The notes below the pieces were generated by a model. That model was not told the DNA's origin. It saw nothing but the letters and a program-made list of their open reading frames with translations, and ran no database searches. Both the position numbers and the translations under genes were made by a program. Below, piece after piece: positions 18,554 through 45,800 of a DNA stretch of 58,051 bases (position 1 is its first letter; every line of letters starts with the position of its first letter). The stretch is from an uncultured archaeon (GTDB lineage Archaea > Asgardarchaeota > Thorarchaeia > Thorarchaeales > Thorarchaeaceae): NCBI GenBank assembly GCA_964458565.1, contig CAYWJO010000018.1:1-58051 (forward strand). Direction: 5' to 3'.

Positions 18554-19003
18554 TCATTCAATATAGGATACTAGTAACCTAGATACATCTTCAACATATT
18601 TCAAACACTTGTCGAATGCCCCACTCTCGAATGCTTTCATCATATCCACATCATCTGTGCCCCCGTCATATTGAATTAGGTCTTGACATAGGATTGACCC
18701 ATTGATTGCCTTGAATTCTTCAAGTAATCGAGTAGAGATTTCAGCTACCTTTGGGTTCATTGGGTTTCCATCACCAAATTCTAGGCCAATTGCCATTAGA
18801 GCACCTGTCAAAGCCCCGCAGACATTACCGGTGAGATTTATTCCCCCACCGAAGGCAGATGCGATCTTCATACAGGTTTCGACGTCAACTCCTTTTTCTC
18901 CCATGTAGGGACCAAACGTAGCGAAGATTGCTTGCGAACAACTTGCCTTCATGCCATTCATTAGCTCCTTTGCAGCGCATGTATTCTTAGATGAATCACT
19001 CAT
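18554..19003 (-). CDS. C_GCAxxG_C_C family putative redox protein
   Basis: CSQA, FGGG, CGALTG, GSILCQDL, KC. Confidence 0.9.
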   Translation of the reverse strand: MSDSSKNTCAAKELMNGMKASCSQAIFATFGPYMGEKGVDVETCMKIASAFGGGINLTGNVCGALTGALMAIGLEFGDGNPMNPKVAEISTRLLEEFKAINGSILCQDLIQYDGGTDDVDMMKAFESGAFDKCLKYVEDVSRLLVSYIE

Positions 19004-19974
19004 TGAATCACTTCCTCTGTGTACACTGAAATCGCAACACTACCCACTTTATGTCCTTTATCCGCATAAGCATGAGCTTCTGCAATCTGTTCAATGGGAT
19101 AGGTCCTATCAATAACTATACGCAATTTGTTTGCTTCTACAAGCTCTTTAAGAAAAATCAAATTTTCCGGACCACTTGCTATTGCAAATATCGCCTTCTT
19201 TTTACCAATCTTTGAAGTCCAAAGCATTTGCATAAGGAGTCGATATGAGGGTACAGTTGATAGATAGATACCATCTTCTCGGAGCCGCTTCTTGCATTTT
19301 GAGAAAGAGCTCTTCCCCACGGCATCAAATATTATGTCATATACTTCTTCTTCTTTGGTAAAATCGATTTTGGTATAATCAATTACTCTATCTGCACCCA
19401 ATGATTTCACCAATTCAATGTTCTTTGTACTGCAAACTCCTGTAACTTCAGCACCAAAATACTTCGCTAGTTGTACAGCAAATACTCCAACTCCTCCTGA
19501 TGCACCATTGATGAGAATCCGTTGTCCTTTCTGAATATTTGCTAGTGTTCTAAGGAAGTGTAATGATGTTATACCTCCAAATCCAATGGACGCTCCTTCT
19601 TCATAACTCATACCAGGAGGCATTGTAGTTATTGTTGCATTTTCTGTGCAGACAACATACTCTGCATATGATCTAGAAACACATCCGAATATCTTATCTC
19701 CTTTCTCGAACTTGGTCACATTACTGCCAACCTCAACGATTTCTCCTGCCACTTCGTTTCCCAAGATTTCCTCTTCTGATGGTTTTAAACCCATCATCAA
19801 CCTTCCAAAGGGCCAAATTGGTGCGTCTGCGCTCCTCGTTCTATAATCCATTGCGTTTACAGATGTGGCGTGAACCTTCACCAACACTTGATTGTCCTCA
19901 ATACTTGGTTTCTCTATCTCATCTAAGACTAGAACATCTGGTGGTCCGAATCTTGTCAAAATTGCTGCTTTCAT
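19000..19974 (-). CDS. NAD(P)-dependent MDR oxidoreductase (quinone-oxidoreductase-like, catalytic Zn Cys absent)
   Basis: FGPPDVL, ATSVN, NGASGGVG, LGADRVIDY, DAVG. Confidence 0.9.
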   Translation of the reverse strand: MKAAILTRFGPPDVLVLDEIEKPSIEDNQVLVKVHATSVNAMDYRTRSADAPIWPFGRLMMGLKPSEEEILGNEVAGEIVEVGSNVTKFEKGDKIFGCVSRSYAEYVVCTENATITTMPPGMSYEEGASIGFGGITSLHFLRTLANIQKGQRILINGASGGVGVFAVQLAKYFGAEVTGVCSTKNIELVKSLGADRVIDYTKIDFTKEEEVYDIIFDAVGKSSFSKCKKRLREDGIYLSTVPSYRLLMQMLWTSKIGKKKAIFAIASGPENLIFLKELVEANKLRIVIDRTYPIEQIAEAHAYADKGHKVGSVAISVYTEEVIQ

Positions 19975-20851: not shown

Positions 20852-21337
20852 TTAAAAACGAGCTAGTAGCTCTGTGTATTCCAAGAGCGCGTGTGATGTG
20901 GAAGAACCAATATCGATACCAACACTCAACAACTGAAGACTAGTTGCGCTATCATACAATGGGATAGTTCGAATCTTAGGTTCAGAGTATGTTCTAGGAG
21001 ACATCTTTGAACTAGCTGTTGATTGTATTCTCATCCCTTCAATTCTTGATAAAGCGGTATTAAGAATCGGACCAATTATCCCCATCAATCTGTCAAATTG
21101 CTCTCCAGGTTGTAGAACAGATTCGAGAGCTGGTTTGAATTCTATAATAAGGTGATGAAGCTTAGAGTTTTCTGAGACATCATTTGTATCATGCTGTTGC
21201 AATAGCATTTCATATTGACGTGTAAAGGATTCTTCAAGATCCGATGCGTCTTCACTATAATACTCCTCAAAGAATTTACTCACGGTTTCAATGACTCGCC
21301 ACTTCAAGCGGTTTACATCAAGCTCAGTAATCTTCAA
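20852..21337 (-). pseudogene. Truncated or internally deleted second eutA-like copy
   Basis: N-terminal ~90 aa homologous to 21334-23385; similarity stops right after LSVGIDIGSSTSH. Confidence 0.75.
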
Positions 21338-23385
21338 TCAACCTCCAAATACTCCTTGTTCTCGTTAAAGACCAAACTTTTTACTGTAACAGGAAACGCT
21401 TGAGTCGATTTGAAGGGCGCACCAATGTCAATCCAGTCACCTGCTTCCAGTAACAATTCGTCTAGGCATAGGATATTGTTCTTTATTGAGGTTTCATCGC
21501 GTATAGCGAGTCCCAACATCTTAGCCATGTCATAAGCGAACAATAAGATAATCAGTTTCTTCTTGCTAACGGAATTTGGGAGTGCTTTTTCAAGTGCCTT
21601 TGCGAATTGATGTAACAAGTTATCGAAAGAATAAACTGTTGAGGACATTCGATCTTTGAAGTAAAGTGCAACTAAGTCCTCTCCTTCAATCATATCAAAA
21701 GTCTTGAAAGCTCTCTTGACTGCTTCGATTACTCTCTCATGAGAGAATTCATCTGCCCCTAGGTTGACAGGTAGAACCGGGATATTTCCAATTGGAAGTT
21801 CAATGCTTTCATCGAAGAATGTAGTGGACCCTGAAACAGAGAGAGAGAAGGCTCCAGCACCGATGACTGTGGCTCTAATCTTGTTCTCAGGTTCTACCAT
21901 TGGTAGATTGTATTCCTCCACCAAAGCCTTGAGTTCCTGAGCTATATAATTCCCGATGTCATCGTAATTTGCCTCACTCCCATAGAACATCTCTGCTACT
22001 CCACCAGAGAATGAGTACACATCTACTGGTATAGAAAAATCAAGATCCTCGGTCATCATCAGTTCCTTAGCAACAGTACTCTTTGCAGAACCCCTCATAA
22101 CTTCAACCAAAGCCTTAGCATATTCGCGAGCAATAGTTCGGACATCTTCTTCAGAAATGAAGTCGTCAATCTTGTAGCTCATGCCGAGTTCGTTCATCAG
22201 AAACTGGGTGGGCCCATCTATTCTCCAAATCTTGAAGTCTTTGTCAATCCCCAATAGTCGACCACCAACATTGATGCAGGATGTACTGAGGACCTGACCC
22301 CGTGACGCAATGGCTAAATTACTAGTACCTCCACCAAGGTCTACATGCAATACGGATTTCTGAGTCTTGAGGGATTGGTCTACGATACCACTTCCCATGG
22401 CTCCAAGAAGTGATTCAAGATTTGGTCCTGCGGCTGCACTGACGAACTTCCCTGATTCAGATGACAAGCGCCTCACAATTTCTTCAGCATTCTGTTTCTT
22501 CGCAGTCTCACCGGTCACCAATACTGCACCCGTTTCAACCATCTCAGGCATCATACCAGCTTTCTTGTACTCTTCTTTGCAGAACTCAACCACTGCCTCG
22601 ATATCGATATTATAGCGGTCAATCAGAGGTGTGAAGATTATGGAGCTCTCATAAATTACCTCACGGTTGACAAGATTGAAGCGATTCGTAATATTGAAGA
22701 AACTAGTCTCTCGCTTTAATGTGAGTCGTGAGAAGATGAGGTGCGATGTGGTCGATCCAATATCGATACCGACACTCAAGACCCTGAGATATTCGACATT
22801 ATCTGCTGGTAGATGACTCATCAAAAGTTCTACTGGTACAAATGGTTCGTCTTCTTCGGTTTCTTCAACTGGAAGTTCTTCGTGTTTCTTGGAGACGCTG
22901 ATTTTCACATCCTGCCCACAGTGAGTTGGTAGTTCTGCTTCGTCTTCTGAATTTAGGATTTGTTTTTTCACTTCATGTGAAACATCTATTTTCTCTCCGC
23001 ACACTGCACAATAGAAAGTGATGTCGATGGATGGGTCACTCCCAGGAACAATGGGTCCATCTCTCTTGGGAGAAGGCTTTTTCTTGCGTCGATGTGCCCC
23101 TTCCCAAGGAGCCTTGAACATCCACAAAACCATGGTCAACAGTTGATCAAATTCCTCACTTGGTTGCATGACAGAGGACAAGGCAGGTTTGAAGGAAGTG
23201 ATAAGCTGACGCATTCCGTCCACTTCCGAAGTGACTTCCGGATCATACTGCTGTAGCAATGATGAATACTGTACTTCAAATGAATCCCCTAGATTCACTG
23301 CATCTTCTCCAAAGTGTTTCTCAAAAAATCCTTTGACGACTCCAATGACATTATGCTTCATACTCTCAACATTGCTTTCGGTCAT
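21334..23385 (-). CDS. eutA: EutA-family reactivase (ASKHA ATPase) with N-terminal helical and Zn-ribbon-like extension
   Basis: SVGIDIGSTTSH, SSIIFTP, VTGETAKKQNA, FVSAAAGPNLESLL, DLGGGTSN, IRATVIGAG, GDWIDIGAP...PVTVKSLVF; CAVC...HCG. Confidence 0.88.
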   Translation of the reverse strand: MTESNVESMKHNVIGVVKGFFEKHFGEDAVNLGDSFEVQYSSLLQQYDPEVTSEVDGMRQLITSFKPALSSVMQPSEEFDQLLTMVLWMFKAPWEGAHRRKKKPSPKRDGPIVPGSDPSIDITFYCAVCGEKIDVSHEVKKQILNSEDEAELPTHCGQDVKISVSKKHEELPVEETEEDEPFVPVELLMSHLPADNVEYLRVLSVGIDIGSTTSHLIFSRLTLKRETSFFNITNRFNLVNREVIYESSIIFTPLIDRYNIDIEAVVEFCKEEYKKAGMMPEMVETGAVLVTGETAKKQNAEEIVRRLSSESGKFVSAAAGPNLESLLGAMGSGIVDQSLKTQKSVLHVDLGGGTSNLAIASRGQVLSTSCINVGGRLLGIDKDFKIWRIDGPTQFLMNELGMSYKIDDFISEEDVRTIAREYAKALVEVMRGSAKSTVAKELMMTEDLDFSIPVDVYSFSGGVAEMFYGSEANYDDIGNYIAQELKALVEEYNLPMVEPENKIRATVIGAGAFSLSVSGSTTFFDESIELPIGNIPVLPVNLGADEFSHERVIEAVKRAFKTFDMIEGEDLVALYFKDRMSSTVYSFDNLLHQFAKALEKALPNSVSKKKLIILLFAYDMAKMLGLAIRDETSIKNNILCLDELLLEAGDWIDIGAPFKSTQAFPVTVKSLVFNENKEYLEVD

Positions 23386-23887: not shown

Positions 23888-24301
23888 TCATCCGATCTTA
23901 TCTAATACTAGGATTTTTGGAAGTTTCAGTAGCTTTCCTAAGTTTCGACCCGTTGTTCCACCACTATAACGCAATCTTCTCTTACCGAATCGGTTCGTCC
24001 CCGTCATCATCTTCACGGTTGAATACTCCCCGTTGGTGAAGTACATCAAGTCCTCTGGATCAGCTATAAGCTCCAAATCATACTCGACCAGTCTCCCCTT
24101 ATTGAGGGCGTAATTACCGCTATTAGCAACCAGGTTCACCCATATGATGACCTCCTCCTCCACATGCAAGCCAATGTTTATCCTTGCTTGGAACTCATCA
24201 AGAGTCTTTGAGTTCTTGTGATTCTTCCGCTTATCAGTAATAACGTCTTCAATCACAGCCTTGAAAGTTTGGAACAAGGTCTCTTGTGCTGCTACATCCA
24301 A
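23888..24301 (-). CDS. SCP2-like (sterol carrier fold) protein
   Basis: YDLELIADPEDLMYFTNG...LRYSG...LLKL pattern; cotranscribed with SCP2. Confidence 0.55.
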   Translation of the reverse strand: MDVAAQETLFQTFKAVIEDVITDKRKNHKNSKTLDEFQARINIGLHVEEEVIIWVNLVANSGNYALNKGRLVEYDLELIADPEDLMYFTNGEYSTVKMMTGTNRFGKRRLRYSGGTTGRNLGKLLKLPKILVLDKIG

Positions 24302-24321
24302 TATGCTTCACTCCACTACGT

Positions 24322-24780
24322 TCAATACAATTCCGTATCAACTAAGGTTGCAGTACGTACTAACTCTTTAGCTGCATCTGTGGCTTTGAGAACTTTTGCC
24401 ATGTTACCCACAATTTTTGCTTTCCCACTAAGAAGCCCGCGGACAGGATCCAGATCGCCCTTCAATATTTGTAACCAAGTTTCATAATTAGCCTCGTAGG
24501 TGTATTCTACTGCAATTTTATCAGCGTTACTTGCTTTCTCATCAGGTCCTACAACCTCGAATTCGTCTTCACTTAAAATGGGCTTTACACCTGTACACTT
24601 CCCATGAGTTAGTCCAATGAAAGCCATCACATCGTGGTCTAAATTTCCGCTAGCTCTCACGATGAAAATAAAGTCCCCAGTCCACCAAGAGGCAGCTTTA
24701 GCATACGCTTCGTTACCATTTAGTGCAACCTTGTACAATTCTAACCATTCTTCTGACATGAATTTTGGCATCGTAAACAT
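24322..24780 (-). CDS. SCP2 sterol/lipid-binding protein
   Basis: FMSEEW...YAKAASWWTGDF; TWLQILKGDLDPVRGLLSGKAKIVGNM; start ATG 24780 or 24771. Confidence 0.85.
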   Translation of the reverse strand: MFTMPKFMSEEWLELYKVALNGNEAYAKAASWWTGDFIFIVRASGNLDHDVMAFIGLTHGKCTGVKPILSEDEFEVVGPDEKASNADKIAVEYTYEANYETWLQILKGDLDPVRGLLSGKAKIVGNMAKVLKATDAAKELVRTATLVDTELY

Positions 24781-24842
24781 TCCTTGTATTTGCGTTTGGG
24801 TCATTAATGCTGTGTTATGCAAACCAGTTGATAAATAGTGCT

Positions 24843-25124
24843 TCAACCACCTGTAACTAATGGAAAGAGGGATATTTCATCTCCCTCGTTCACCTGAGTC
24901 TCCAGTCCTCCAAGAAACTTAATCTCCCTACCGTTACATAAAATGGTGATGTCAGATTTAATTTCTTGATTTTCATCAAGTAGGACATCTTTCATCTTCG
25001 AGTCAAGAAATAATTCTTCTAAGAGATCGGAGATAGTTGCACCATCTATTAAATCCAATTCGACGATCACCTTCCGACCAACGAGGTTACGAAGATATGA
25101 GTAAAATCTCACTTCTACCTTCAA
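24843..25124 (-). CDS. MoaD/SAMP ubiquitin-like sulfur carrier
   Basis: Beta-grasp pattern, NGREI, GDEISLFPLVTGG C-terminal diglycine; divergent from AOR. Confidence 0.9.
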   Translation of the reverse strand: MKVEVRFYSYLRNLVGRKVIVELDLIDGATISDLLEELFLDSKMKDVLLDENQEIKSDITILCNGREIKFLGGLETQVNEGDEISLFPLVTGG

Positions 25125-25207
25125 GCAAGGTCCTTCCAGACTCTGAAATACATCAAGCTTATAAAAGCGTGTAGAACTGTTTTCTGATTAACTGGGGTCA
25201 TTACATC

Positions 25208-28200
25208 ATGTATGGGTATATGGGCAAAATCCTGCGAGCCAATTTAACAACATTGACTATTACGGAGGAATTTCCTGATGATGAAACCTTGAGGAAGTAC
25301 CTTGGGGGTGCGGGATTAGCGACTAAGATCCTTTTTGATGAAACCGAGCCAGGTATAGATCCTCTCGGACCTGATAATAAGCTCATTTTCATGACAGGTC
25401 CGTTAACAGGTACAAGTTCCCCAAGCACCGGACGTTATAGTGTAGTAACCAAGGCTCCACTCACCAATGGCTGGGGTCAAGCTAATTCAGCAGGCTTTTG
25501 GGGTAGGGATTTCAAGCGCTCAGGATTCGACGGTGTGATTTTCGAGGGGAAGGCACCAAAGCCTGTTTACCTCCTTACAGAAGATGGAAGAGCTGAATTA
25601 CGGGATGCAGGAGAAATATGGGGAAAGAACACCTCTGAAACTACTAAACTCCTGAGGGACAAGCATGGATCTAAATTCAATGTCGCTTGTATTGGTATTG
25701 CAGGTGAAAATCTCGTTAAGTATGCTGCCATTATGAATGATTGCGATGAAGAACACTGGGGCAGGGCAGCTGGTCGATGTGGTGTCGGTGCAGTTATGGG
25801 CTCAAAAAACCTCAAAGCAATTGTATCAAAAGGAACCATGACCATACCTATTGCTAATCCCGATGCATATAGAGAAGAGGCAAAACAAAGGTTCGATTGG
25901 GTGAACCAGAGCATCCTGAAGATGACCCTCGAGGTTTACGGAACAGCAACGATGGTTGACCTAGTAGGTGTCAAGGGTGGAATCCCAACGAGGAACTGGC
26001 AGACTGGCGTCTTCGAGAACACGGAGAGCATCAACGGACAAGCAATAAATGATAGCATCTTGGTGAAACGAAAGCCTTGTTTCGCCTGCCCCATCCATTG
26101 TGGGAGAATCTCTGAAATAAAGAATGGTCCATTCAAGAGCAAGGGAGAAGGTCCTGAATACGAAACCCTGAGTTCATTTGGGACTATGTGTGGAGTAGAC
26201 AATTTAGAAGCTATAACGTTGGCTCACTTCTTATGCAACGAATACGGGATTGATACAATTTCAGCAGGGAATACAGTAGGGTTTGCAATGGAGTGTTACC
26301 AGAGAGGTATTTTGAAAGACAAGGATGTCGACGGAATGGACTTCTCTTGGGGAAATGCGCAATTAATAGTCGACATTGTTCACAAGATTGGGAACCGTGA
26401 AGGAATAGGGGATTTACTAGCTGAAGGTACAAAGAGGATAGCTGAAAAACTTGGTAACGGTTCAGAAAGATTCGCGATGCATGTCAAGGGTCTCGAACTT
26501 CCCGGTTACGATAGTCGGGCAGCAAAGATAACAGGGTTGGCCTATGCAGTAGCTAATCGTGGTGGTGACCATATCACTGCATACATCGAAGGTCCTGCGT
26601 TCCTTGCCATGCCATTTATGATAGTCGATGATGCGGACATAGGAGATCCCTTGAAAGAAATCCCAGAAACGACATTGATAGTTAAAAACTTCGAAGATGC
26701 ATTTGGAATCTTTGATGCCATCGGAGGTTGTAAGTTCATGGGGATGGTACTTACCACAGAAGATTGGGCAGGTTTAATCTCATCATTGATGGGAATTGAA
26801 TATACGGCAGATGACTTTCGAAAAACTGGCGAGCGGATTTACAATCTTGAGCGCGCGTATATAATAAGAGAAGGGTTCACTCGAGCTGACGACACATTAC
26901 CACCAAGGTTACTTGAAGATCCAATGCCCGAAGGTCCCGCGGAAGGACATGTTGTAGACTTGGATATCCTCCTAGATGCCTACTACAAGTACCGTGGGTG
27001 GGATGAGCAAGGTAGACCAACCAAGGAGAAGCTCAGAGAGCTCGACCTAGAGTGGCTAATTGATATAGTTCACTCAGATGTGATAATGGGTAAGGAAGTT
27101 GTCAAAGAAAAAACGCAGCATGTTACTCCGAGCGTCAAAAAAACTACCACAATAATTGATTCACAAAAAGTGATCTCAGAGAGACCTTGGCTTGAGAGTT
27201 ATAAGATTGGCCCATTCAAACTGGAACACTCGATGGCACCCTATCCTGAGATGAATGTGTATAAATTTCTTGAAAATACAACAGAGGAATTTCCCGACAT
27301 CGTGGCATGTGAATATGCTGATGAGCAGATGACATACCCTGAACTGAAGCAGAAAGTGGATAAACTGGCATCCGCTTTCGTCGCACTCGGTGTGAAGAAA
27401 GGTGATACCATCGCGACTGTGCTTCCATCATGTCCAGAATTTGTGATTGCGGATTATGCAGCAATGAAGATTGGTGCCATTCATGTCCCCCTAAGCATAT
27501 TGCACAAGGCTGATGACCTGCAATACGAACTCAATGAGAGTAATGCAGAACTCGTCGTTTGCTCATATAGACGTATCGAACGTATCAACCAAGTGAAACC
27601 CAGGACAAATGTGAAGACTGTCATCTATGCGCCGACAAAGTTGTTTCCGGACTATAAGTACCCAAACATGGAAGATATCAAAGATGATAATTACTATCTC
27701 ATGGATGATTTAATTGAGAAATATGAACCACACACGGAGACTGTAGATATCAACCCGAGGGAAGACATTGCTCTTTTGCCATTCACTGGAGGCACGACAG
27801 GTCTTCCAAAAGGGACCATGTTGACCCACTATAACATAACATCAAATGTGAGACAAACAATCCATTGGATGATGGAGCCCCTGAAGGAAGGCATCATTGG
27901 CAAGAGCGCGGGGGTGATTTGCGTGCCAATCTTTCATGCATATGGTCACTGGGCTGTACATGCATGCATCTCGTGGGGAATCAAGATGTACCTAATGGAT
28001 CCACGTGATATATCGAAGATTGTTGATGTCATTAACAAACACCGTCCGTTCATGGTTTTTGGAGTTCCAACACATTACATGCTGTTCTCAAAGATGGACC
28101 TCATCAAGGGACAAATCTTCTACTTCTCCGGTGCAGCAGCACTTCCAGAAGACCTAGCAGAAGAGTTTGAAGAGAAGGCAGGTGTACCGATGGGAGAAGG

Positions 28201-28849
28201 ATATGGTGCAACAGAGACCTCTGGTGTTGCTACAATCAACATTTCAGCGCTGTCAAAGGTGACAGGGTTCATGGCTGAAACAAAGAGAGGCGTAGGAATT
28301 CCTATCCCTGATACGGAGATTATGATAGTGGACCCCGACTCAGGTGAGGTGTTGCCTATTGGTGAACATGGTGAGATTTGGGTCAGAGGTCCTCAGATTA
28401 TGAAGGGGTATTGGCCAACACCGGGGAGTGGACTAAAAGGAGAAGGCTGGTTGCCCATGGGAGATATCGTCGAAATTGACAATGATGGTTATTTCAAAGT
28501 TGTTGATCGGATAAAGGATATGATCAATGTTTCCGGTAACAAGGTATACAGTAGGGTAATTGATGATATACTTCATGAGCATGAAGCAGTCGATGTAGCT
28601 GGTGTAATTGGCATCCCCGATCCTGAGAGACCAGGGAGTGAGAGAGTGAAGGCGTTCATTCAGTTAAAGCCTGAGTATAAGGGGAAAGTCACAGAGCAGG
28701 AAATCGTCGATTTTCTGAAGGGAAAGGTGAAACCGTACGCGATTCCCAAATGGGTTGAGTTTCGAGATGAATTACCCATGACAATTGTGATGAAACTATT
28801 CAAGAAGAAACTTAGAGAAGAAGAACTTGCGAAAACAGGTGAAAAGTAG
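25208..28849 (+). CDS. Fusion of tungsten aldehyde:ferredoxin oxidoreductase and AMP-forming (long-chain) acyl-CoA ligase
   Basis: AOR: GAVMGSKNLKA, CFACPIHC, GPEYET, HVKGLE, YYKYRGWD. Ligase: FTGGTTGLPKG, EGYGATE, MGD, DRIKDMI, terminal Lys motif. One uninterrupted frame. Confidence 0.92.
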   Translation: MYGYMGKILRANLTTLTITEEFPDDETLRKYLGGAGLATKILFDETEPGIDPLGPDNKLIFMTGPLTGTSSPSTGRYSVVTKAPLTNGWGQANSAGFWGRDFKRSGFDGVIFEGKAPKPVYLLTEDGRAELRDAGEIWGKNTSETTKLLRDKHGSKFNVACIGIAGENLVKYAAIMNDCDEEHWGRAAGRCGVGAVMGSKNLKAIVSKGTMTIPIANPDAYREEAKQRFDWVNQSILKMTLEVYGTATMVDLVGVKGGIPTRNWQTGVFENTESINGQAINDSILVKRKPCFACPIHCGRISEIKNGPFKSKGEGPEYETLSSFGTMCGVDNLEAITLAHFLCNEYGIDTISAGNTVGFAMECYQRGILKDKDVDGMDFSWGNAQLIVDIVHKIGNREGIGDLLAEGTKRIAEKLGNGSERFAMHVKGLELPGYDSRAAKITGLAYAVANRGGDHITAYIEGPAFLAMPFMIVDDADIGDPLKEIPETTLIVKNFEDAFGIFDAIGGCKFMGMVLTTEDWAGLISSLMGIEYTADDFRKTGERIYNLERAYIIREGFTRADDTLPPRLLEDPMPEGPAEGHVVDLDILLDAYYKYRGWDEQGRPTKEKLRELDLEWLIDIVHSDVIMGKEVVKEKTQHVTPSVKKTTTIIDSQKVISERPWLESYKIGPFKLEHSMAPYPEMNVYKFLENTTEEFPDIVACEYADEQMTYPELKQKVDKLASAFVALGVKKGDTIATVLPSCPEFVIADYAAMKIGAIHVPLSILHKADDLQYELNESNAELVVCSYRRIERINQVKPRTNVKTVIYAPTKLFPDYKYPNMEDIKDDNYYLMDDLIEKYEPHTETVDINPREDIALLPFTGGTTGLPKGTMLTHYNITSNVRQTIHWMMEPLKEGIIGKSAGVICVPIFHAYGHWAVHACISWGIKMYLMDPRDISKIVDVINKHRPFMVFGVPTHYMLFSKMDLIKGQIFYFSGAAALPEDLAEEFEEKAGVPMGEGYGATETSGVATINISALSKVTGFMAETKRGVGIPIPDTEIMIVDPDSGEVLPIGEHGEIWVRGPQIMKGYWPTPGSGLKGEGWLPMGDIVEIDNDGYFKVVDRIKDMINVSGNKVYSRVIDDILHEHEAVDVAGVIGIPDPERPGSERVKAFIQLKPEYKGKVTEQEIVDFLKGKVKPYAIPKWVEFRDELPMTIVMKLFKKKLREEELAKTGEK

Positions 28850-28858
28850 GGGTGTTCA

Positions 28859-29320
28859 ATGACGAGTATGTTTGAGAAGATTCTCCCTGGACAAATAAAC
28901 AATGAGTATAATGGTTACAAGGTTTCTGAGATTGCGTTTCTTATCATTGCAATCATATCTGTAGCAAGGAGTTTACTTCACATCTTTCTTCCTGATGGAG
29001 GAGCTGAATCGATAGCAACAATTGATTTGAATATAGAAGGAGCAAATGTAATTGTTAGTATGTTTGCCCTGTGGGGGCTCTCACAGATACTAATGGCAAC
29101 ATTCTATCTTATTGTGTATTTTCGCTATAAGAGCCTGATACCTTTGATGTATATCTTCATTATCATGGAGTATGCTACCAGAATTGGAATAGGTCTATTG
29201 AAGCCAATAGAAACCATGGGGATAGCACCTGGAGCTATTGGCAATTTCATAATTGTTCCTCTTGCGGTGATTCTGTTCATCTTTGCCATAATAGAACCTC
29301 ATCGGGCTGCACATGTTTGA
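28859..29320 (+). CDS. 4-TM membrane protein of unknown function
   Basis: Hydrophobic helices; PDGGA and APGAIGN motifs; directly follows AOR fusion. Confidence 0.8.
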   Translation: MTSMFEKILPGQINNEYNGYKVSEIAFLIIAIISVARSLLHIFLPDGGAESIATIDLNIEGANVIVSMFALWGLSQILMATFYLIVYFRYKSLIPLMYIFIIMEYATRIGIGLLKPIETMGIAPGAIGNFIIVPLAVILFIFAIIEPHRAAHV

Positions 29321-29476
29321 ATCGTCTGGGATTCAAAAACAAAGTCAAAGAATAATACGTGTAGCTGTGGTTATTATTCAGGAGAGTGACTGTATATCGA
29401 ACGTGATTTGATAGACGCAAGACGGTTTTTATAATGGATTTTAATTTTCACTAGAATATACTTGGAGATATCATGC

Positions 29477-31510
29477 ATGACTGAACCAGTACCATATCTA
29501 GATGAGAGGCGAAGCATCGAAGATAGAATAGAAGACTTGCTCTCACGACTCACACTTAAAGAGAAATTCTCTCTTCTCAGTAGCCAGGGGCGTCATAGAA
29601 TCTATACAACAAAGGAAATTAAACGACTTAAAATTCCAGGTTACAAGGTGACTGATGGACCTTTTGGTGTTGCCGGTCACTCAAGTGGGTTCAAGAAAAA
29701 CACTAGGTTTCCAGCTACCATTTCACTTGCAGCTTCATGGAATAGAGAACTCGCACGGAATGTAGGAACTGCTATAGGTAGGGAAACAAGAGCTACTGGT
29801 CGACATGTGCTTCTCGCGCCAGGAATAAATATCCAACGAACTCCTTTAGGAGGTAGGACATTTGAGTACTATAGTGAGGACCCATTTCTAACAAAGGAAC
29901 TGGCGGTTCAGTTTGTTAAGGGAGTTCAGAGTCAAGGGATTGCTGCGTGTGCAAAACACTACGCCGCAAATAATCAAGATAAAGATCGAAAGACCATGAG
30001 CACTGAGATAGACGAACGTACATTGCATGAGATATACCTTCGAGCATTCAGAGCACTAGTGAAGGATGCAGATGTCTGGACATTCATGACTTGTTATAAT
30101 AAGGTAAATGGGACCTATGGAGCTGAAAATCAGTATCTGATCCGTGATATTCTGATGGACAAGTGGGGATTTGATGGGATGGTTATGACAGACTGGCTTG
30201 CTACTGGAAAAATCCAGACAACAGAGGGATGTGTGGATGCAGGTCTTTCCCTTGAGATGCCATTTCCTACAAGATACAAAATCAGTTCGCTACAGAAAGC
30301 ATACAATGATGCTAAATTCAGTGATGATGCATTGAATTCTCTTGTAAGAAGAAATCTAAGAACGATGATGCGAACCAGAGCATTTGACAGACCCAAGTCT
30401 ATTAACCCTGGAGTTCGTAACACTCCTGAGCATCAAGAGTTAGCACGACATGCAGCTGAAGAGGGTATGGTTCTGCTGAAGAATGAGAGAAGACTTCTTC
30501 CGCTAAACATTGAAGATTTAGAGAGTATTGCATTACTAGGTCCTAACCTGAGGAAGAAGTTCGGAAGGATTGGGTATGGAGGATCCTCAGCAGTTGTGCC
30601 GCCTTATGAAATAACTCCATTTCAAGGAATGAAAAACAAATGTAAGGGGAAGGTAAAAATCATACAGAATCCAGCTCAAGCGGATGCAGTCATTCTTTTT
30701 GTAGGTTTGAATCACAGCAAGGGAATGGACGCTGAAACTGATGATAGAAGTACACTTGACCTTCCAGAACAACAAGTGGAGTTGATTAGAGAAACAGCTG
30801 CACAAAATGAAAATACGATTGTCGTTCTCATCGCTGGAAGCCCTATTGCCATGGAGCCATGGTTAAATGAAGTACCTGTGGTTCTCGATGCATGGTACTC
30901 TGGAATGGAGGGAGGAAATGCAATTGCCAATGTTCTCTTTGGAGATATCTGCCCTTCAGGTCGATTGCCCATAACATTTCCAAAGAAGCTCTCTGATTCT
31001 CCAGCACATCATTCAGGAGACCCACGAAATTATCCTGGTGATGATCAGAAGAAAGTTTTCTATGATGAAGGTATCTTTGTGGGATATCGCTGGTTCGATG
31101 AGAAGGATATTGAACCTCTATTTCCATTTGGTTATGGCCTCTCGTACACAGCGTTTGAACTAGATTCAATTACACCAGATAAAGAAACATTATCCTCGAC
31201 TGAAGATACGGTGACTCTTAGCATCGAGTTGAAGAATACAGGAGATGCCTCTGGCTCTGAAGTTGTCCAAGTATATTCCAGAAACCTTCAATCATCAGTC
31301 GAGAAACCTCCAAAGGAGTTAGTCGGATTCGAAAAGGTCTTCCTACATCCAAATGAAAGAAAGACTGTAAATATTCAAATCAAAGCAGAGGATCTTGGCG
31401 TCTATGATATATCTTCACATGATTGGTTTATTGAGCCAGGTGAGTTCCAATTGGAGATTGGACGATCATCACGTGAAACTCTAATAACGACTAAAATAAG
31501 CTACGAGTAA
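29477..31510 (+). CDS. GH3 beta-glucosidase with FnIII-like C-terminus (no signal peptide)
   Basis: TDGPFG, GRTFEYYSEDP, KHY, MTDW nucleophile, EGIFVGYRWF, PFGYGLSY. Confidence 0.95.
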   Translation: MTEPVPYLDERRSIEDRIEDLLSRLTLKEKFSLLSSQGRHRIYTTKEIKRLKIPGYKVTDGPFGVAGHSSGFKKNTRFPATISLAASWNRELARNVGTAIGRETRATGRHVLLAPGINIQRTPLGGRTFEYYSEDPFLTKELAVQFVKGVQSQGIAACAKHYAANNQDKDRKTMSTEIDERTLHEIYLRAFRALVKDADVWTFMTCYNKVNGTYGAENQYLIRDILMDKWGFDGMVMTDWLATGKIQTTEGCVDAGLSLEMPFPTRYKISSLQKAYNDAKFSDDALNSLVRRNLRTMMRTRAFDRPKSINPGVRNTPEHQELARHAAEEGMVLLKNERRLLPLNIEDLESIALLGPNLRKKFGRIGYGGSSAVVPPYEITPFQGMKNKCKGKVKIIQNPAQADAVILFVGLNHSKGMDAETDDRSTLDLPEQQVELIRETAAQNENTIVVLIAGSPIAMEPWLNEVPVVLDAWYSGMEGGNAIANVLFGDICPSGRLPITFPKKLSDSPAHHSGDPRNYPGDDQKKVFYDEGIFVGYRWFDEKDIEPLFPFGYGLSYTAFELDSITPDKETLSSTEDTVTLSIELKNTGDASGSEVVQVYSRNLQSSVEKPPKELVGFEKVFLHPNERKTVNIQIKAEDLGVYDISSHDWFIEPGEFQLEIGRSSRETLITTKISYE

Positions 31511-32435: not shown

Positions 32436-33140
32436 TTGACCGAATCCACAATAGAAATCAAATGCATCAGAGTAAAAGGTACCTCACGATATCTGCTTGA
32501 TGAGAGAATTGCTGTTGAAGCACATCTAAAGCTGATCATAAATGGTGAAATCACATATTCTTTTATTCATAGTCCAGGTTTGGCTGAACAACTTGTAATT
32601 GGACACCTCTTGTCCGAAGGAGTAATCTCCACACGCAATGATATTGATAGAATTGAAATCACCAGTGACCATATCATAGAACTCTGGTTGAAGAGAACCA
32701 ACGAATTAAAAGAAGATTCGAGTTCTGAGATTCCACTCTCTATGGAAAATCTCCTTGGATTTCGAAAGATTCTGCGTGATAGTCAAAAACTTCACAAATC
32801 AACTCGAGGATTTCACGGAGCTTTGCTAGTTAATCTTGCAAACAAAAACTGGTTTATGTGCGAGGACATTGGTAGGCATAATGCGGTTGACAAAGTTATC
32901 GGATTTGGATCCGAGATGAATTATAATTTTGTAGAATGTCTACTCCTGGTATCTGGACGGCTTATCTCCAACATTGTATCCAAAGGAAGCAAAACAGGAA
33001 TAGCTGCAATGGCGTCAATGACTGTTGCTACCGATGAAGGAATTCGTATTGCTCAGCAATCCAATATGACCTTGATTGGAGCACTCTCAGATGCGGGATT
33101 CTGGCTGTACAATGAAGGAAGGGTTAAGATATCTCCATGA
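32436..33140 (+). CDS. fdhD: Formate dehydrogenase accessory sulfurtransferase
   Basis: GHLLSEG, TRGFHGA, EDIGRHNAVDKVIG, SGR. Confidence 0.9.
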   Translation: MTESTIEIKCIRVKGTSRYLLDERIAVEAHLKLIINGEITYSFIHSPGLAEQLVIGHLLSEGVISTRNDIDRIEITSDHIIELWLKRTNELKEDSSSEIPLSMENLLGFRKILRDSQKLHKSTRGFHGALLVNLANKNWFMCEDIGRHNAVDKVIGFGSEMNYNFVECLLLVSGRLISNIVSKGSKTGIAAMASMTVATDEGIRIAQQSNMTLIGALSDAGFWLYNEGRVKISP

Positions 33141-33159: not shown

Positions 33160-34590
33160 TCAGAAGATAGATTCAATAGTTAAATCATATTTCTTGATAA
33201 GATTTGTGAAAACTCGATAGAGTTCAGGATTAGGTTCTTTTTGAATGACCTCATTCAATATTTTGTTAACAAACTCTTTAGCCCTTGTTAGGGTTGATTT
33301 TGATCCCTCCTTTATCCACTGCCCTATTGTCAATCTATCAATTATAGGTGAAGGCATAAAATGCTCACTTCGCAGATATTGGGAAGTATGTTTCTGCTTT
33401 AGAAAGTCGCCACCATGACCAACTTGCTGGATCAAAGCAATCTCTGAATCAATATCTTCGGAACTAGATTCTTTGATGAATCGATATGCAGAACCACAGA
33501 GTTCATTGTCAATAACTAGTTTTTCTAGTGATTGACAGTTAATGTATGCCAGTACTCCAGGTCCAGATACAATATTGATTCCTACTAAAGCAGCTAGAAC
33601 TAGACCTATTCCAGATTCATAACCTGCTTGACTATCCTCAGTCTTTGAATCACTGAGTCCAATATAGGCGTGTGTGGGTAGGTTGTACATCTTACCAATT
33701 TCAGCAGATGAACATGAGGCTATCATAGCCTCACTTGAAGCAAAACGAGGAGTTGTATATCTCATATCCATTGGAGCGATTGCACCACCGTATATGACTG
33801 GAATACCAGGATTGACCAATTGAGCTAATACTACTCCACTCAATATCTCAGCATTTGTTTGTATCAATGTTCCACGGATCGTAATTGGACTTGTAGCCCC
33901 CATGAGGGGTGCCGGTACAATTTCAACAGGTAGACCAAGTTTGGCGCAGTCAATCAAGTTTTGAGCTGCTACTTCTGACCAGGTCAAAGGTGACGTTGGA
34001 CAACAATCAAAGATAGCTGATGGGTTTGATCTGAGTTCATCAGCTCCACGGATAGCCACCAGTAGGTCCCACATTTCGTTTATTCCATCTTTCCTAAATG
34101 CCCCGGTTATTACTGGTTTCGTTGAATGATTCAATACTAAGTACAAACGCGTGAAGTCTTTTACTACTTCAGGGATATCTGAAGGTATCAATGCTGTACT
34201 CTGCGCGTTGATGTATTCTAATTTCTCAACAATTTGAATAATCTCGATTAAATCATCAACAGTACCTTTTCTAATTTCACTGTTTTTTCGGTCTTTCATA
34301 AAGGATACAGATGACCCCGGATTGTATATGACATTATCATCACCTACTATCCAACTGCGTTTTTCATCTTGTGAATGTAATTCAAATGAAGAAGGTGATT
34401 TCTTTAGACTCTCTTCAATTAAATGGGGAGGAATCTTACAAAGGTTTGATTCTATCTCGCATCCAGCTTTCCCTAGGATTTGAATAGATTCCGCATTCTT
34501 GATTCTAATCCCAGTATTCTCCAAAATATTAAGTGATCCATCATGAATCGATTTCTTTTCAGTCGAGGAGAGAAATTGAATACGAGTCAT
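33160..34590 (-). CDS. MttB-superfamily methyltransferase, non-pyrrolysine
   Basis: SPL, LMGATSPIT..GTL.Q.NAEILSG, PMDMR, GLSDSK..D.QAGYES, EKLVIDNE, VGHGGDFL...HT. Confidence 0.92.
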   Translation of the reverse strand: MTRIQFLSSTEKKSIHDGSLNILENTGIRIKNAESIQILGKAGCEIESNLCKIPPHLIEESLKKSPSSFELHSQDEKRSWIVGDDNVIYNPGSSVSFMKDRKNSEIRKGTVDDLIEIIQIVEKLEYINAQSTALIPSDIPEVVKDFTRLYLVLNHSTKPVITGAFRKDGINEMWDLLVAIRGADELRSNPSAIFDCCPTSPLTWSEVAAQNLIDCAKLGLPVEIVPAPLMGATSPITIRGTLIQTNAEILSGVVLAQLVNPGIPVIYGGAIAPMDMRYTTPRFASSEAMIASCSSAEIGKMYNLPTHAYIGLSDSKTEDSQAGYESGIGLVLAALVGINIVSGPGVLAYINCQSLEKLVIDNELCGSAYRFIKESSSEDIDSEIALIQQVGHGGDFLKQKHTSQYLRSEHFMPSPIIDRLTIGQWIKEGSKSTLTRAKEFVNKILNEVIQKEPNPELYRVFTNLIKKYDLTIESIF

Positions 34591-35447: not shown

Positions 35448-36215
35448 ATGGGAATTGTGAAAACAAAAGAAGAACTTGCAATGCGAGCCAAGAAATTTAC
35501 AGAGGGTTATACTCTCAGTGAAGTTACAATGGTAAATCTCATGTTTTCCACAACTATGGAAGCGATCGAGAATGTGTTACCACCACCTCTCGAACTACCT
35601 TCTGCACCTTTAGGAAGTGTCTATGTTGCTGAATTTCATAAATCGAGTTTCTGTCCACCGTACAATGAGGCAGCTATCTTTGTATCATGTGAGTATAAGG
35701 GGATATCAGGAAGTTATTGTCTATCAATGCCAGTTACAAATGACATTGCAATGATTGGAGGGAGAGAGATCTATGGATATCCAAAGAAAATTGCTGAGCA
35801 AATTGAAGTGACTCGTAATGGCGACAGAGTCACTGGTATGTGTGTGCGAAGAGGGGTGCCGATTATTGAAATTGATGCAACAATCACGGAACCATTTGAA
35901 GATGAAATTGGTTCATCGCCTCATTTTCTTTTGAAAACGTTCGCTAATGAAAAGGGATTAGGACCCGATATCAATCCAAGAATTGTAAAACAATTGAATC
36001 ATGTAAAATGGGGGACCAAGGAAGTCGGAAAAGCAACACTCTCGTTTGGTAAATCTACGCATGATCCATTTCATGAGATTCCGATTGAACAGGTATTAAT
36101 GGCACTATACACCGAAGGAACGGAGATACAAATGCCACCAGGAGAGATTCTTGTCGAAGTAAATCCCAAAGATATAGAGCCATATATTTGGATCAAGTAT
36201 GATTGGGACATCTAG
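35448..36215 (+). CDS. Acetoacetate decarboxylase family protein
   Basis: LPPPLE, PYNEAA, GREIYGYPKK Schiff-base Lys motif. Confidence 0.9.
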   Translation: MGIVKTKEELAMRAKKFTEGYTLSEVTMVNLMFSTTMEAIENVLPPPLELPSAPLGSVYVAEFHKSSFCPPYNEAAIFVSCEYKGISGSYCLSMPVTNDIAMIGGREIYGYPKKIAEQIEVTRNGDRVTGMCVRRGVPIIEIDATITEPFEDEIGSSPHFLLKTFANEKGLGPDINPRIVKQLNHVKWGTKEVGKATLSFGKSTHDPFHEIPIEQVLMALYTEGTEIQMPPGEILVEVNPKDIEPYIWIKYDWDI

Positions 36216-42844: not shown

Positions 42845-45800
42845 ATGGGAATTGTATATAATCCGTTGAAAAACAGCAGCGTGAAAGAGGAGGAGAACAG
42901 TATTTCGAAAGAAAACGGAAAACGAATTATTGCGATAATTTGCATAGTAATAATTGCTACACCAATACTACTACAAATTAATAGTTTAGTATCAAATGAT
43001 CTAACAAATGCAGTAGTTGAGGATGATGGCAATTCCCATATTGAAATTCAAGAATATCAAGGCGAAATAGTTAGAGCTGAGAATGGAGGTACATGGATAC
43101 CCTTTTCTCCCGGAGCAGGAGAGGGAACACCTCAAATTATACTGCCGAAAACTAGTACAACTACGAGCATGCTGATTGATACGTCCTTTAGTGGAGCATA
43201 CAACATCAGCGTTGAAATCGATGAAACATGGTATAACTATCTGCATATGCCAAATGTTGGAACTCTTGGAGAAGTAGGAATGCCTTCAGTTCCAATTCTT
43301 ACAAGATATTTCATTGTTCCAGAGAACGTGGATTTGGAAATAGATATCGAATACGCCTTAGGGTCAGTTTTGGATGGTTTCAGATTAGCGCCTTCGCAAG
43401 AACCCATTCCCAACCTAAAAGATTACGATCCTCCACCATTTGAACTGCATAACGAAACATACATGACAGATGAGTTCTACCCATCAGAGATCGTGACCGC
43501 AGAAGGGCTTTCTGAATCTAGTCCAATGTATATGAGAGGCTATAGATTCATTCCGATAACATTCTATCCATTGCAGTTCAATCCAGTCACTCATCAGATT
43601 CGTATATTTTCGAAAATCGAGGTTCGGATAATATACTCAGAAGCAGCACAAATTGAAATGGTGCCATTTAGATTATGTTCATCAGCGTTCTTCAAGATAT
43701 TTGATGCACTATTTCCAAATTTTGGATCTATTTCTGAAACAGAAGATTGTCCTAGTGGCGCTGAATATCTGATAATTACAAACGATACATTCTACGATGC
43801 GGTAGTACCACTAGCAGAATGGAAGACACAGAAGGGAATCAAGGCAACAATTGTGAAGACTTCAGAAATCAATCCCTCAGGACCAACTGCAAACGAAATA
43901 AGAGATTATATCATGAATGCATACAACACTTGGACACCCGCTCCGAGTTATGTACTACTTGTGGGAGACGTTGAACATCTACCCACCAATTATGGATTAC
44001 CTCATCCTTATGACCGACATGGTGGGTTTCATATAGCTACCGATTTGTATTACGGAACTGTTCATGGCAATGATACGTTTCCGGATGTCTTCGTAGGGAG
44101 ACTACCAGTGGATACATACATCGAATGTGTGAATCTTACATACAAGATCATAAATTACGAGAGAAATCCCGATCCAAATCCTTTCTTCTACAATAGCACA
44201 ATTGTAGCAGGAGAGTTTCAGGATAATGATGGAGATGGTTTCGAAGATAGGAGATTTATCCTAACTTGTGAAGAAATTCGAGATTTTCTATTGGATGAGG
44301 GTAATGGTGTAACCAGAATCTACCATCATGATAATCCTGCTGCTAATAATCCCACTAATTACAATTTGGGCAATTACGGTATTGGAGACCCCCTACCAGC
44401 TGATTTGCTATGGAATGGATTTAGATGGAACGGCGATACATCTCACGTTGTTGGTAATATATCTCTTGGATCATTCCTGGTTGTCCATAGAGACCATGGA
44501 AGCTCCCAGAATTACTGGAGTCATTTGGGAGGATATTTCCCCTCAACATATGATGGATGGACATCTCCAAGATTCACAACCGCAGACGTGGGTGCATTGA
44601 CAAATTCTCTCATGTGGCCAGTTGTATTTAATATAGAATGCATGGGAGGTTGGTTTGATGGTGAAACTGACCAGACAGATGACCCAGCGCTTACGAACAA
44701 CTTCGAATCACTTTGTGAGGAATTACTCGTTGCACCAGCTACAGGAGCGATTGCAACAATTGGGGCTTCAAGAGTTAGTTATAGTGGTGTTAATGACGAT
44801 TTAGCAGAGGGATTCATCGACGCAATCTGGCCGGACTTCAATGTGGACTTTAATTCAGGAGGGCTCTATAGTTTTGGACAAATAATGACTTATGGAAAAG
44901 CATACATGGCAACAAGAGACTTCTGGACAGGAAATACACTAGTAGATGAAACTTTCGAACTTTTCAATCTCTTTGGTGACCCAGAATTGGAGCTCTGGAC
45001 GGACTATCCTGAAACACTAGATGTGACACACCCAAGTACTATTGGTTCACAGGGACTGCAATCATTTGTTGTAAAGGTGAATGATGCTAGTCTCGCTCCA
45101 GTTAACCATGCAAGAGTCTGTCTTTGGAAGGCAAGTGACATATATGAGGTTGAATACACTGATGCACTTGGTTGTGCATATTTTGAAATCACACCAGCAT
45201 CCTCTGGGGATCTCTTAATCACCGTTACAAAACACAATTTTATCCCATATGAAAGCATCATATCTGTGACAGGATCAGGTGCCACAATATCTGTAACTCC
45301 AGAACAGGGACCTGATGGAATCAATGTGCAGATTATGGGAACCGGATTTGATGGTAGTGAAACTGTTTCCATTTACTTCGGAGGTCCTTCTGTTGACACA
45401 ACAACATCAGCTAGTAGTGGATCATTTACAATCCCTACATTCGCAGTTCCAGCAGGTGATGACGGCCCGTTGAACGTGTACGCATTAGGACAAACCTCAG
45501 GTCGAGCCGCGTTAACACTCTTTAGACGACTTCCTGACACTCCATTACCAGATCCATATCTCTATTGTCAATGGGATTCTAGTACATGGCACCTGAATCC
45601 AGCAGGTGGAGACCCTAGATGGAATAATCCAGTTATTCAATTATATGACCAAGCCACAATGAACCCTGTTGCTTCAAACGATTTAGAAATTGGTCATTTG
45701 TACGTAATCGAAGCAACAATTCATAACGACGCGACAGTAGATGCAGTAGATACGAGTGTCACTTTTGAGTGGGCATTCTGGGGTGCAGGACAAAAGACTT

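Follow-up and report, generated by a model that had tools for sequence, protein, structure and literature searches.

Why would an aldehyde:ferredoxin oxidoreductase (AOR) and an acyl-CoA ligase be encoded in a single reading frame? This question is raised by a 58,051-nucleotide stretch of DNA, hereafter the window, from an uncultured archaeon of the Asgard family Thorarchaeaceae (contig CAYWJO010000018.1 of assembly GCA_964458565.1), in which an uninterrupted frame at 25208..28849 on the + strand encodes a 1213-aa protein composed of an AOR, a linker and an AMP-forming acyl-CoA ligase, next to divergently transcribed genes for a MoaD-like protein and two SCP2-like proteins. Asgard archaea and other anaerobes of sediments contain many AORs and express them strongly, although the physiological substrates are mostly unknown (PMC11291895), and papers on Asgard archaea treat them as generic, multifunctional aldehyde oxidisers (PMC11291895, PMC8163825). 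Our comparative analysis suggested that the fusion is probably the covalent form of a conserved module of anaerobes, consisting of an SCP2-like carrier, an AOR and a FadD-like ligase, that would convert hydrophobic alcohols or aldehydes to acyl-CoA. A sequence-only reading of the locus had proposed that the AOR and then the ligase act on hydrophobic substrates, and this proposal gained strong comparative support from the adjacency of the two genes and an SCP2-like gene in two domains of life and from neighbouring alcohol dehydrogenase (ADH) and MaoC genes. Judging from these gene associations, sequential action of the two enzymes, from hydrophobic aldehyde to acyl-CoA, is likely.

Architecture and motifs of the fusion protein

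Four Pfam domains were found in the fusion protein, namely AFOR_N (residues 6-210, E 4e-77), AFOR_C (237-614, E 1e-139), AMP-binding (689-1069, E 1e-85) and AMP-binding_C (1118-1193, E 7e-13); the scan detected AFOR and AMP-binding domains only, with no peptidyl carrier protein (PCP) domain and no NADPH reductase domain. The N-terminal module (aa 1-620, 25208..27067, + strand) was identified from its PDB and residue matches as an AOR, predicted to carry a tungstopterin and a [4Fe-4S] cluster. The PDB search ranked Pyrococcus furiosus AOR (1aor) first, with aa 1-614 aligned onto residues 1-601 at E 5e-164, and gave weaker matches to FOR (2e-114), WOR5 (7e-81) and BamB (7e-69), which places the module in the AOR-proper clade, nearer to AOR than to FOR, WOR5 or BamB. 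A BamB-like, acyl-CoA-reducing identity was dropped, BamB being the most distant among the nine PDB matches.

Residue-level alignment to P. furiosus AOR further supported this assignment. The Fe-S cysteines C291, C294, C298 and C508, arranged as a CxxCxxxC motif plus a distal Cys, align to C288, C291, C295 and C494 of the P. furiosus enzyme, and Y318, E319 and H455 are the equivalents of its Y312, E313 and H448. R76, the arginines of the R182 region, D343 and D489 of P. furiosus AOR are also retained. By the residue roles described for 1AOR, the Tyr-Glu pair and the His lie beside the metal and the Arg and Asp residues at the pterin sites; Glu332 and His383, which in the P. furiosus enzyme are ligands of the dimer-bridging metal, are aligned here with Leu and Val. 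Among the active-site and pterin residues tested, the sole exception was Asp338, which is replaced by Asn344 in the first DxxGxD pterin motif, and this Asn is invariant in 53 of 53 homologues. The Fe-S, active-site, pterin-site and ligase motif residues were likewise invariant across these 53 fused or paired homologues, and by these motifs both halves of the protein look catalytically competent. The earlier description of a 1213-aa frame with intact Fe-S cysteines and pterin motifs was therefore borne out, apart from the replacement of Asp338. The module shares its three-domain fold family with P. furiosus AOR (1AOR) and with the AOR-proper structures 9MQX, 9G7J and Aromatoleum aromaticum AorB (8C0Z). 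It differs from P. furiosus AOR in its 600-aa C-terminal ligase and in the invariant Asn, and from the AOR-proper enzymes in that no AorA/AorC-type subunit genes lie near the fusion. The genome to which the window belongs contains ten AOR genes, and only the one at 25208..28849 is fused.

The C-terminal module (aa 655-1213, 27170..28849, + strand), whose N-terminus carries a 'PWLxSY..GP' segment, was identified as a FadD-like AMP-forming acyl-CoA ligase from NCBIfam, the PDB and its motifs. The ANL motifs A3 (TGGTTGxPKG), A5 (GYGxTE), A7 (GD) and A8 (the DRxKD hinge) were located at residues 860-869, 996-1003, 1085-1086 and 1100-1104, respectively. The A10 lysine, K1196, is invariant in the 53 homologues, and the A10 motif (residues 1193-1196) reads (V/A/T)-M-K in most members in place of the usual G-K. 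The top NCBIfam models were long-chain-fatty-acid-CoA ligases, every score lying under the curated cut-off: the top model, NF004837, gave 369 bits against 476, and the FadD equivalog NF006523, to which the ligase aligns over positions 3-558 of 561, gave 266 against 884. The nearest solved structure was Archaeoglobus fulgidus FadD-1 (3g7s), followed by fatty-acyl, feruloyl and coumaroyl ligases, and acetyl-CoA synthetase was absent among the PDB matches at E < 1e-40. By these comparisons the ligase is a class-I ANL enzyme of the FadD/4-coumarate-CoA ligase class, not assignable as a FadD equivalog. It resembles the FadD ligases (3G7S and the Escherichia coli FadD model NF006523) in both AMP-binding domains, the core ANL motifs and an N-terminal 'WL..Y' segment; it differs from them in scoring far under the equivalog cut-off, in having V-M-K rather than G-K at A10, and in being fused to, or encoded directly after, an AOR. 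A role in acetaldehyde or acetate metabolism was judged unlikely, because the ligase does not belong to the acetyl-CoA synthetase class.

Distribution and evolution of the fusion

To establish how widely the fusion occurs, we searched protein clusters with the junction region (aa 500-800) as the query. Approximately 45 clusters at 90% identity, drawn from NCBI, JGI, ENA and Logan, contained the same four domains in proteins of 1204-1226 aa, with identities of 71-82% for Thorarchaeota and 56-58% for Hodarchaeota. A second search, with aa 520-780 against 400 genomes of the phylum, gave matches that cross the junction without a stop; about 24 of the genomes concerned belong to the same family as the window, and two to a different one. 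The same architecture in some 45 independent clusters and in genomes of the window's family ruled out an assembly artefact. Of the points raised with the sequence-only reading, the domain-architecture search showed that the four-domain architecture recurs, the frame runs uninterrupted through the junction, and homologues are not always separate, most of them being separate yet adjacent. A search of a 50%-identity protein library with aa 300-1000 was uninformative on distribution, since its top 150 proteins lacked two-domain matches and known Thorarchaeota fusions were missed.

Several apparent variants did not withstand inspection. Protein P0051, an 'AOR-only, partial' entry of the closed Thorarchaeota genome CP070761, was rejected as an unfused form or as an AOR joined to an electron-transfer flavoprotein, because a run of N truncates it just inside the ligase module, and apparent fusions in three genomes of family f22 (G173, G202 and G222) proved on reading of the junctions to contain stop codons, so that the genes are separate. 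One Thorarchaeota genome of the window's family carries two fused copies (G327:C40:25155-25937 and G327:C142:1332-2123, with 77% and 71% junction identity). AORs were also seen in another kind of fusion, in which AFOR_N and AFOR_C are followed by an OMPdecase/HUMPS-family (hexulose-phosphate-synthase-like) domain (P0151, 992 aa; P0123, 832 aa); by their domains, such proteins could couple formaldehyde or sugar-aldehyde chemistry. In the literature searched, we found no paper on an AOR-ligase fusion, in agreement with the earlier statement that no characterised one is known, and none linking an AOR with a sterol carrier protein. We regard the fusion as a new domain architecture, and the conserved module, whose component enzymes all come from known families, as unstudied.

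In most organisms the AOR and the ligase are separate genes in the same order and on the same strand, with the AOR directly 5' and a spacer of 38-260 nt, as judged by reading the junctions in the fetched loci and in 80 loci from a species-representative genome collection searched with the ligase-module alignment. The unfused AOR ends near '...EW.I..IY', and the unfused ligase starts 8-12 residues before a (D/E)(K/R)PW motif. Archaeal unfused pairs occur in a subset of Thorarchaeota, in Hodarchaeota, Heimdallarchaeota, Hermodarchaeota, many 'Promethearchaeota' metagenome-assembled genomes (MAGs) and Bathyarchaeota; bacterial ones occur in Desulfobacterales, Desulfatiglandales and Syntrophaceae, and in one MAG each of Chloroflexia, Spirochaetales and Actinomycetota. 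Fused forms were found in two groups only: one is the clade of Thorarchaeota to which the window belongs, and the other is a small clade of Hodarchaeota type. When the AOR and ligase parts were concatenated and analysed by maximum likelihood (53 rows; IQ-TREE quick search under LG+G4), these two groups did not come together; each formed its own clade, strongly supported and surrounded by unfused relatives. A single clade of all fused forms was rejected by an approximately unbiased (AU) test (delta lnL 470, p 2e-75), although the group was chosen after the tree, so that the p value is only indicative. Since the bacteria and most of the archaea have unfused genes, the simplest reading of these sequences is that the ancestral state was two adjacent genes, AOR then ligase, which were fused twice independently; each fusion would have involved the loss of the AOR stop codon and of the short spacer. 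The implication of the earlier reading that former neighbours had been joined was right in its general idea. The fact that most homologues are separate yet adjacent supports functional coupling of the AOR and the ligase, and the retention of order and adjacency in archaea and bacteria, together with two fusions, would be hard to explain otherwise.

The two halves are joined by a linker of 35-40 aa (approximately aa 621-654; 27068..27169, + strand) that is unconserved and K/T/V/E-rich, the sequence-only reading having called it Lys/Thr-rich. Among 32 fused homologues, the linkers measure 39-47 aa between the flanking motifs and are rich in E, T, K, I, V, A and S; those of the Thorarchaeota and Hodarchaeota forms are unalignable, in agreement with two independent fusions. 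An unconserved linker of this length suggests a flexible tether, which would provide proximity and a 1:1 stoichiometry, rather than a fixed tunnel. The linker also contains the in-frame ATG at 27086 (Met627) after GATGTGA, which had been noted as a possible relic start. The codon is present; its interpretation as a relic start is unsupported, because Met627 is kept in no other fused orthologue and sits some 20 residues N-terminal to the ancestral ligase start, which corresponds to about aa 645-650 here. Hodarchaeota-type linkers retain a Met at that ancestral start, and no Met position is conserved in the linkers across the fused homologues.

Gene neighbourhood and the proposed route to acyl-CoA

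The genes around the AOR and the ligase provided the principal indication of what the module might act on. A homologue of the SCP2-like protein encoded at 24322..24771 (SCP2a, described below) adjoins the AOR and ligase genes in all of the complete Asgard loci examined, as it does in many loci from bacteria. Some of the bacterial SCP2-like proteins were missed by tblastn and recovered by hhalign, such as a 190-aa protein 5' of the AOR in a Desulfobacteraceae locus (L066; hhalign probability 99.5%) and proteins of 163-164 aa encoded 3' of the ligase in loci of Syntrophaceae and Chloroflexia (L096 and L075; 96%). A second protein of this kind, SCP2b, is almost confined to Thorarchaeota modules and occurs outside them only in locus L043. 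A complex prediction for the AOR module with SCP2a scored 0.02 against a mark of 0.32 and was not used as evidence.

Alcohol dehydrogenases are recurrent neighbours as well. An iron-containing ADH (Fe-ADH) gene adjoins the module in eleven loci (L003, L009, L012, L013, L044, L046-L048 and L058-L060), which belong to Hodarchaeota, Heimdallarchaeota, Hermodarchaeota, Bathyarchaeota and, in one case, family f22. In bacteria, a GMC-family flavoprotein oxidoreductase is encoded directly 5' of the AOR-ligase pair and the SCP2-like gene that goes with it (L066:1748-3364 in Desulfobacteraceae and L096:2329-4020 in Syntrophaceae), and in the latter locus the GMC gene is itself preceded by a 590-aa alpha/beta-hydrolase (L096:234-2006) that resembles a 608-aa hydrolase near the module of a second Thorarchaeota genome (L001). 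In unfused Thorarchaeota loci, a double-hotdog hydratase of the MaoC/MFE-2 type is encoded directly 3' of the ligase. The genome of the window encodes elsewhere four acyl-CoA dehydrogenases, two 3-hydroxyacyl-CoA dehydrogenases and two MaoC proteins. On another contig of this genome, a second cluster (G000 contig C13:20000-33000, - strand; L017:3319-8947) comprises genes for an SCP2 paralogue (164 aa), an NMO/FabK-like flavoprotein, an Fe-ADH, a 603-aa AOR that stands alone and a PAP2 lipid phosphatase; an acetoacetate-decarboxylase-family gene adjoins the cluster, which has no ligase. This arrangement suggests that SCP2, ADH and AOR recur as a unit, whose substrates may be lipid or prenyl alcohols freed from phosphates. 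In several Asgard loci of family f22, a DUF1512 protein of 380-385 aa is encoded directly 5' of the AOR (L008:1549-2691, L011:5170-6327 and L014:1546-2688).

The recurrence of Fe-ADH, GMC, MaoC and alpha/beta-hydrolase neighbours points to a route from alcohol through aldehyde and acid to acyl-CoA and beta-oxidation. In the first step, a poorly soluble alcohol would be oxidised to the aldehyde by a neighbouring or trans-encoded dehydrogenase, presumably the Fe-ADH in Asgard archaea and the GMC flavoprotein in Deltaproteobacteria-type bacteria. The AOR module would then oxidise the aldehyde to the free acid at the tungstopterin and pass two electrons via the [4Fe-4S] cluster to ferredoxin, the tethered ligase would adenylate the acid and form acyl-CoA (ATP to AMP and PPi), and the acyl-CoA would enter beta-oxidation. 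The SCP2-fold proteins may solubilise and present the hydrophobic substrate or the intermediates, and the fusion may hold the two active sites close by means of a flexible tether of about 35-45 aa and fix their ratio at 1:1. The energetic rationale would be that the aldehyde/acid couple is very negative, so that an AOR can capture its electrons as reduced ferredoxin, which anaerobes can spend on making H2 or reducing CO2; with a CoA-acylating aldehyde dehydrogenase, ATP would be saved but NADH would be the only reduced product.

Known systems offer partial parallels. In the alk pathway of Pseudomonas putida, a pathway of aerobic alkane degraders, AlkJ, AlkH and AlkK are an alcohol dehydrogenase, an aldehyde dehydrogenase and an acyl-CoA synthetase. 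The proposed order of reactions is the same, and the bacterial modules have a GMC flavoprotein, the family of AlkJ, at their 5' side; the module differs in using a presumably tungsten- and ferredoxin-dependent AOR instead of an NAD(P)-dependent aldehyde dehydrogenase, in its SCP2 carrier, in its strictly anaerobic hosts and, here, in the fusion of two steps. The net process would be an oxygen- and NAD-independent equivalent of AlkJ-AlkH-AlkK, in which ATP is spent and the low-potential electrons of the aldehyde are captured as reduced ferredoxin. The association of an SCP2 fold with acyl-CoA enzymes recalls peroxisomal MFE-2 and SCPx, as does the MFE-2-type hydratase-2 gene beside unfused Thorarchaeota modules; in contrast to those proteins, SCP2 is a separate small protein here, and no homology of the catalytic parts is implied.

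A number of observations weigh against this route. No ADH or beta-oxidation gene directly adjoins the fusion in the window, the nearest candidate being a gene of the Zn-ADH/quinone-oxidoreductase family at 19000-19974 (- strand). The ligase lies under every NCBIfam equivalog and subfamily cut-off, so that a long-chain preference is at most putative, and feruloyl- and coumaroyl-CoA ligases are among its neighbours in the PDB. P. furiosus AOR favours amino-acid-derived aldehydes, and both Fe-ADH and AOR are reversible in principle. The route costs two ATP equivalents, compared with none for a CoA-acylating aldehyde dehydrogenase, and the compensating gain in ferredoxin is argued only. The long, unconserved linker gives no sign of a fixed tunnel, so that 'channelling' may be mere proximity; the earlier claim of channelling on one polypeptide has to be toned down for this reason, and also because the enzymes are two separate proteins in most lineages. 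Finally, substrate, direction and hand-off are inferred from sequence for every member of the module.

The same sequential chemistry could instead serve aldehydes derived from amino acids or aromatic compounds (phenylacetaldehyde, indoleacetaldehyde, isovaleraldehyde or hydroxycinnamyl aldehydes), salvaging those that leak from 2-oxoacid:ferredoxin oxidoreductases as aryl- or branched acyl-CoA. The AOR module is nearest to the P. furiosus enzyme, whose best substrates are amino-acid-derived aldehydes, and the feruloyl-CoA synthetase and 4-coumarate-CoA ligases among the PDB neighbours of the ligase would suit such substrates; Asgard papers have given AORs this role (PMC8163825). We nevertheless regard these substrates as unlikely. 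The module keeps an SCP2-fold partner, and SCP2 proteins are known to bind lipids or acyl-CoAs; the top NCBIfam models for the ligase are long-chain fatty-acid ligases; and the MaoC/MFE-2-type hydratase, GMC alcohol dehydrogenase and alpha/beta-hydrolase neighbours would be left unexplained. Moreover, aryl-acetates are usually excreted with a gain of ATP via ADP-forming acetyl-CoA synthetase and are not re-activated.

The Fe-ADH and GMC genes bear further on the direction of the pathway. Run reductively, acyl-CoA would be cleaved by a reversed ligase (AMP and PPi to ATP), or an acid would be imported, and the AOR would form the aldehyde and the ADH the alcohol, as an electron sink or a source of fatty alcohol. 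In acetogens and in engineered P. furiosus, AORs catalyse the reduction of acids, the Fe-ADH neighbours are reversible, and fermenting Asgard archaea have surplus reduced ferredoxin. Such a direction is nonetheless distinctly doubtful: the alcohol partner in bacteria is a GMC flavoprotein, and GMC dehydrogenases generally work oxidatively, which favours the oxidative direction; AMP-forming ligases rarely reverse; acid reduction by an AOR needs no ligase, so that the pairing and the fusion would go unexplained; and the MaoC hydratase neighbours fit degradation. A more specific form, in which the SCP2-AOR-ligase unit of Asgard archaea, together with an ADH, would make fatty aldehyde and alcohol from acyl-CoA or a fatty acid in a ferredoxin-driven and ATP-linked process, appears improbable to us. 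At its extreme, the AOR would reduce the acyl-adenylate directly, and the protein would be the tungsten-dependent counterpart of a carboxylic acid reductase (CAR; A domain-PCP-R domain). The fusion does resemble CAR in uniting an ANL adenylation domain and an acid/aldehyde enzyme on one polypeptide; in contrast to CAR, it lacks the PCP and NADPH reductase domains, has the reverse domain order and likely works in the opposite, oxidative direction. If the reductive reading were true, it would provide long-chain alcohols for ether-type lipids or waxes and constitute a new kind of carboxylate reductase, with a bearing on the handling of fatty-acid-derived lipids in the closest archaeal relatives of eukaryotes.

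Under the favoured oxidative reading, the twice-evolved fusion and the neighbourhood shared across domains tie one AOR clade to CoA activation and a lipid carrier, and the module becomes a concrete pathway candidate for the anaerobic use of fatty and isoprenoid alcohols and aldehydes with a yield of low-potential ferredoxin. For alkane-oxidising archaea, the step from alkyl-CoM (coenzyme M) to acyl-CoA is unresolved, and AOR and FadD have been suggested for it (PMC10322722, PMC10811742); the AOR-ligase module would be a candidate for part of this question. The gene associations further suggest that SCP2-fold carriers accompany acyl-CoA enzymes in Asgard archaea, a pairing familiar otherwise from eukaryotic peroxisomes.

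Divergent genes and other features of the window

The genes divergent from the fusion include the two SCP2-like genes, for which the sequence-only reading proved right to a different degree in each. SCP2a (24322..24771, - strand) most likely starts, from comparison with orthologues, at M26 (24771) within a longer frame (24322..24846), which gives a protein of 149 aa as in the orthologues. Its Pfam SCP2 match is marginal (22.7 bits against a cut-off of 21.3); the alignment-based AF2 model has a predicted local distance difference test (pLDDT) score of 95, and its top Foldseek matches are all SCP2 proteins, among them Thermus thermophilus 2cx7 (E 3e-11, TM 0.73/0.84) and 1wfr, at E of approximately 1e-10 to 3e-11. 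By this model the protein has the SCP2 fold, and it may bind a lipid or acyl-CoA ligand in its hydrophobic cavity. The case for SCP2b (23888..24301, - strand), a divergent SCP2-like protein of 137 aa, is weaker: it has no Pfam match, its AF2 model has a pLDDT of 80, and its top Foldseek matches, again all SCP2, reach E values of 4e-5 to 1e-3 and TM of 0.5-0.58. No sequence similarity between SCP2a and SCP2b was detectable.

The divergent gene nearest the fusion (24843..25124, - strand) encodes a 93-aa ThiS-fold protein of the MoaD/SAMP1 type with a C-terminal GG (...TGG), identified by Pfam ThiS and NCBIfam; it passed the cut-offs of both SAMP1 (66.3 bits against 60) and moaD_arch (65.7 against 49.5), so that the earlier identification of a MoaD/SAMP gene was confirmed. 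Its proposed membership in a lipid module was not upheld. A MoaD-like gene beside the AOR and ligase genes is frequent, not universal, among related loci, being missing from some of them, and tungsten-cofactor maturation explains its presence better. In the aor operon of A. aromaticum, two MoaD-like genes (aorD and aorE) have been proposed as tungsten-cofactor maturation factors that do not belong to the enzyme itself (PMC6365974), and on this precedent a function of the MoaD-like protein in cofactor maturation for the AOR is more likely. Although aorABCDE resembles the present locus in having MoaD-like genes beside an AOR gene, the A. aromaticum enzyme is built from three subunits (AorABC), works with NAD or viologens and has no ligase or SCP2 (PMC6365974).

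A MoaD-like neighbour with a free C-terminal Gly-Gly carboxylate also raises the idea that the AOR and the ligase share no substrate at all, and that they are fused or adjacent for reasons of co-regulation or structure only, while the ligase acts, for instance, on an unrelated acid or on the MoaD-like protein itself. The unconserved linker would be compatible with this. We consider it very improbable: order and adjacency are kept across archaea and bacteria and fusion occurred twice, the AOR yields precisely the class of compound on which the ligase acts, MoaD is missing from many loci, and MoaD and ThiS proteins are adenylated by E1-like rather than ANL enzymes.

Between the MoaD-like gene and the fusion lies an 83-bp divergent intergenic region (25125..25207). 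A reading of its sequence revealed a TATA-like TTATAAAA at 25159-25166, about 42 nt 5' of the fusion ATG, which we infer to be a putative promoter element.

The flanks of the module in the window, with genes for a EutA-like protein, a GH3 glycosidase, FdhD and a small membrane protein, were uninformative. The last of these (28859-29320, + strand; 153 aa, with about 3-4 hydrophobic segments) is predicted to start 10 nt past the fusion stop, after a GGGGTG motif; it was excluded as a part of the module, as no homologue was found in 96 related loci. A GH3 glycosidase gene (29462-31510, + strand) and a gene for an FdhD/NarQ-family sulfurtransferase (32436-33140, + strand) lie a few kb 3' of the fusion, and the two genes are likewise found 3' of the fusion in the second Thorarchaeota genome (FdhD at L001:14044-14751 and GH3 at L001:17454-19487). 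Because FdhD sulfurates the molybdenum or tungsten cofactors of formate dehydrogenases, a role of the protein with the AOR cofactor is conceivable. On the other side of the module, two genes from SCP2b, the EutA-like protein (ethanolamine ammonia-lyase reactivase family; 21334-23385, - strand) is 683 aa long, of which about 200 aa form an additional N-terminal extension, and its gene is not conserved across the related loci. Farther along, the window encodes an MttB-family methyltransferase homologue (33160-34590, - strand), an acetoacetate-decarboxylase-family protein (35448-36215, + strand) and a gingipain-type C25 peptidase of 1216 aa with a propeptide (42845-46495, + strand).

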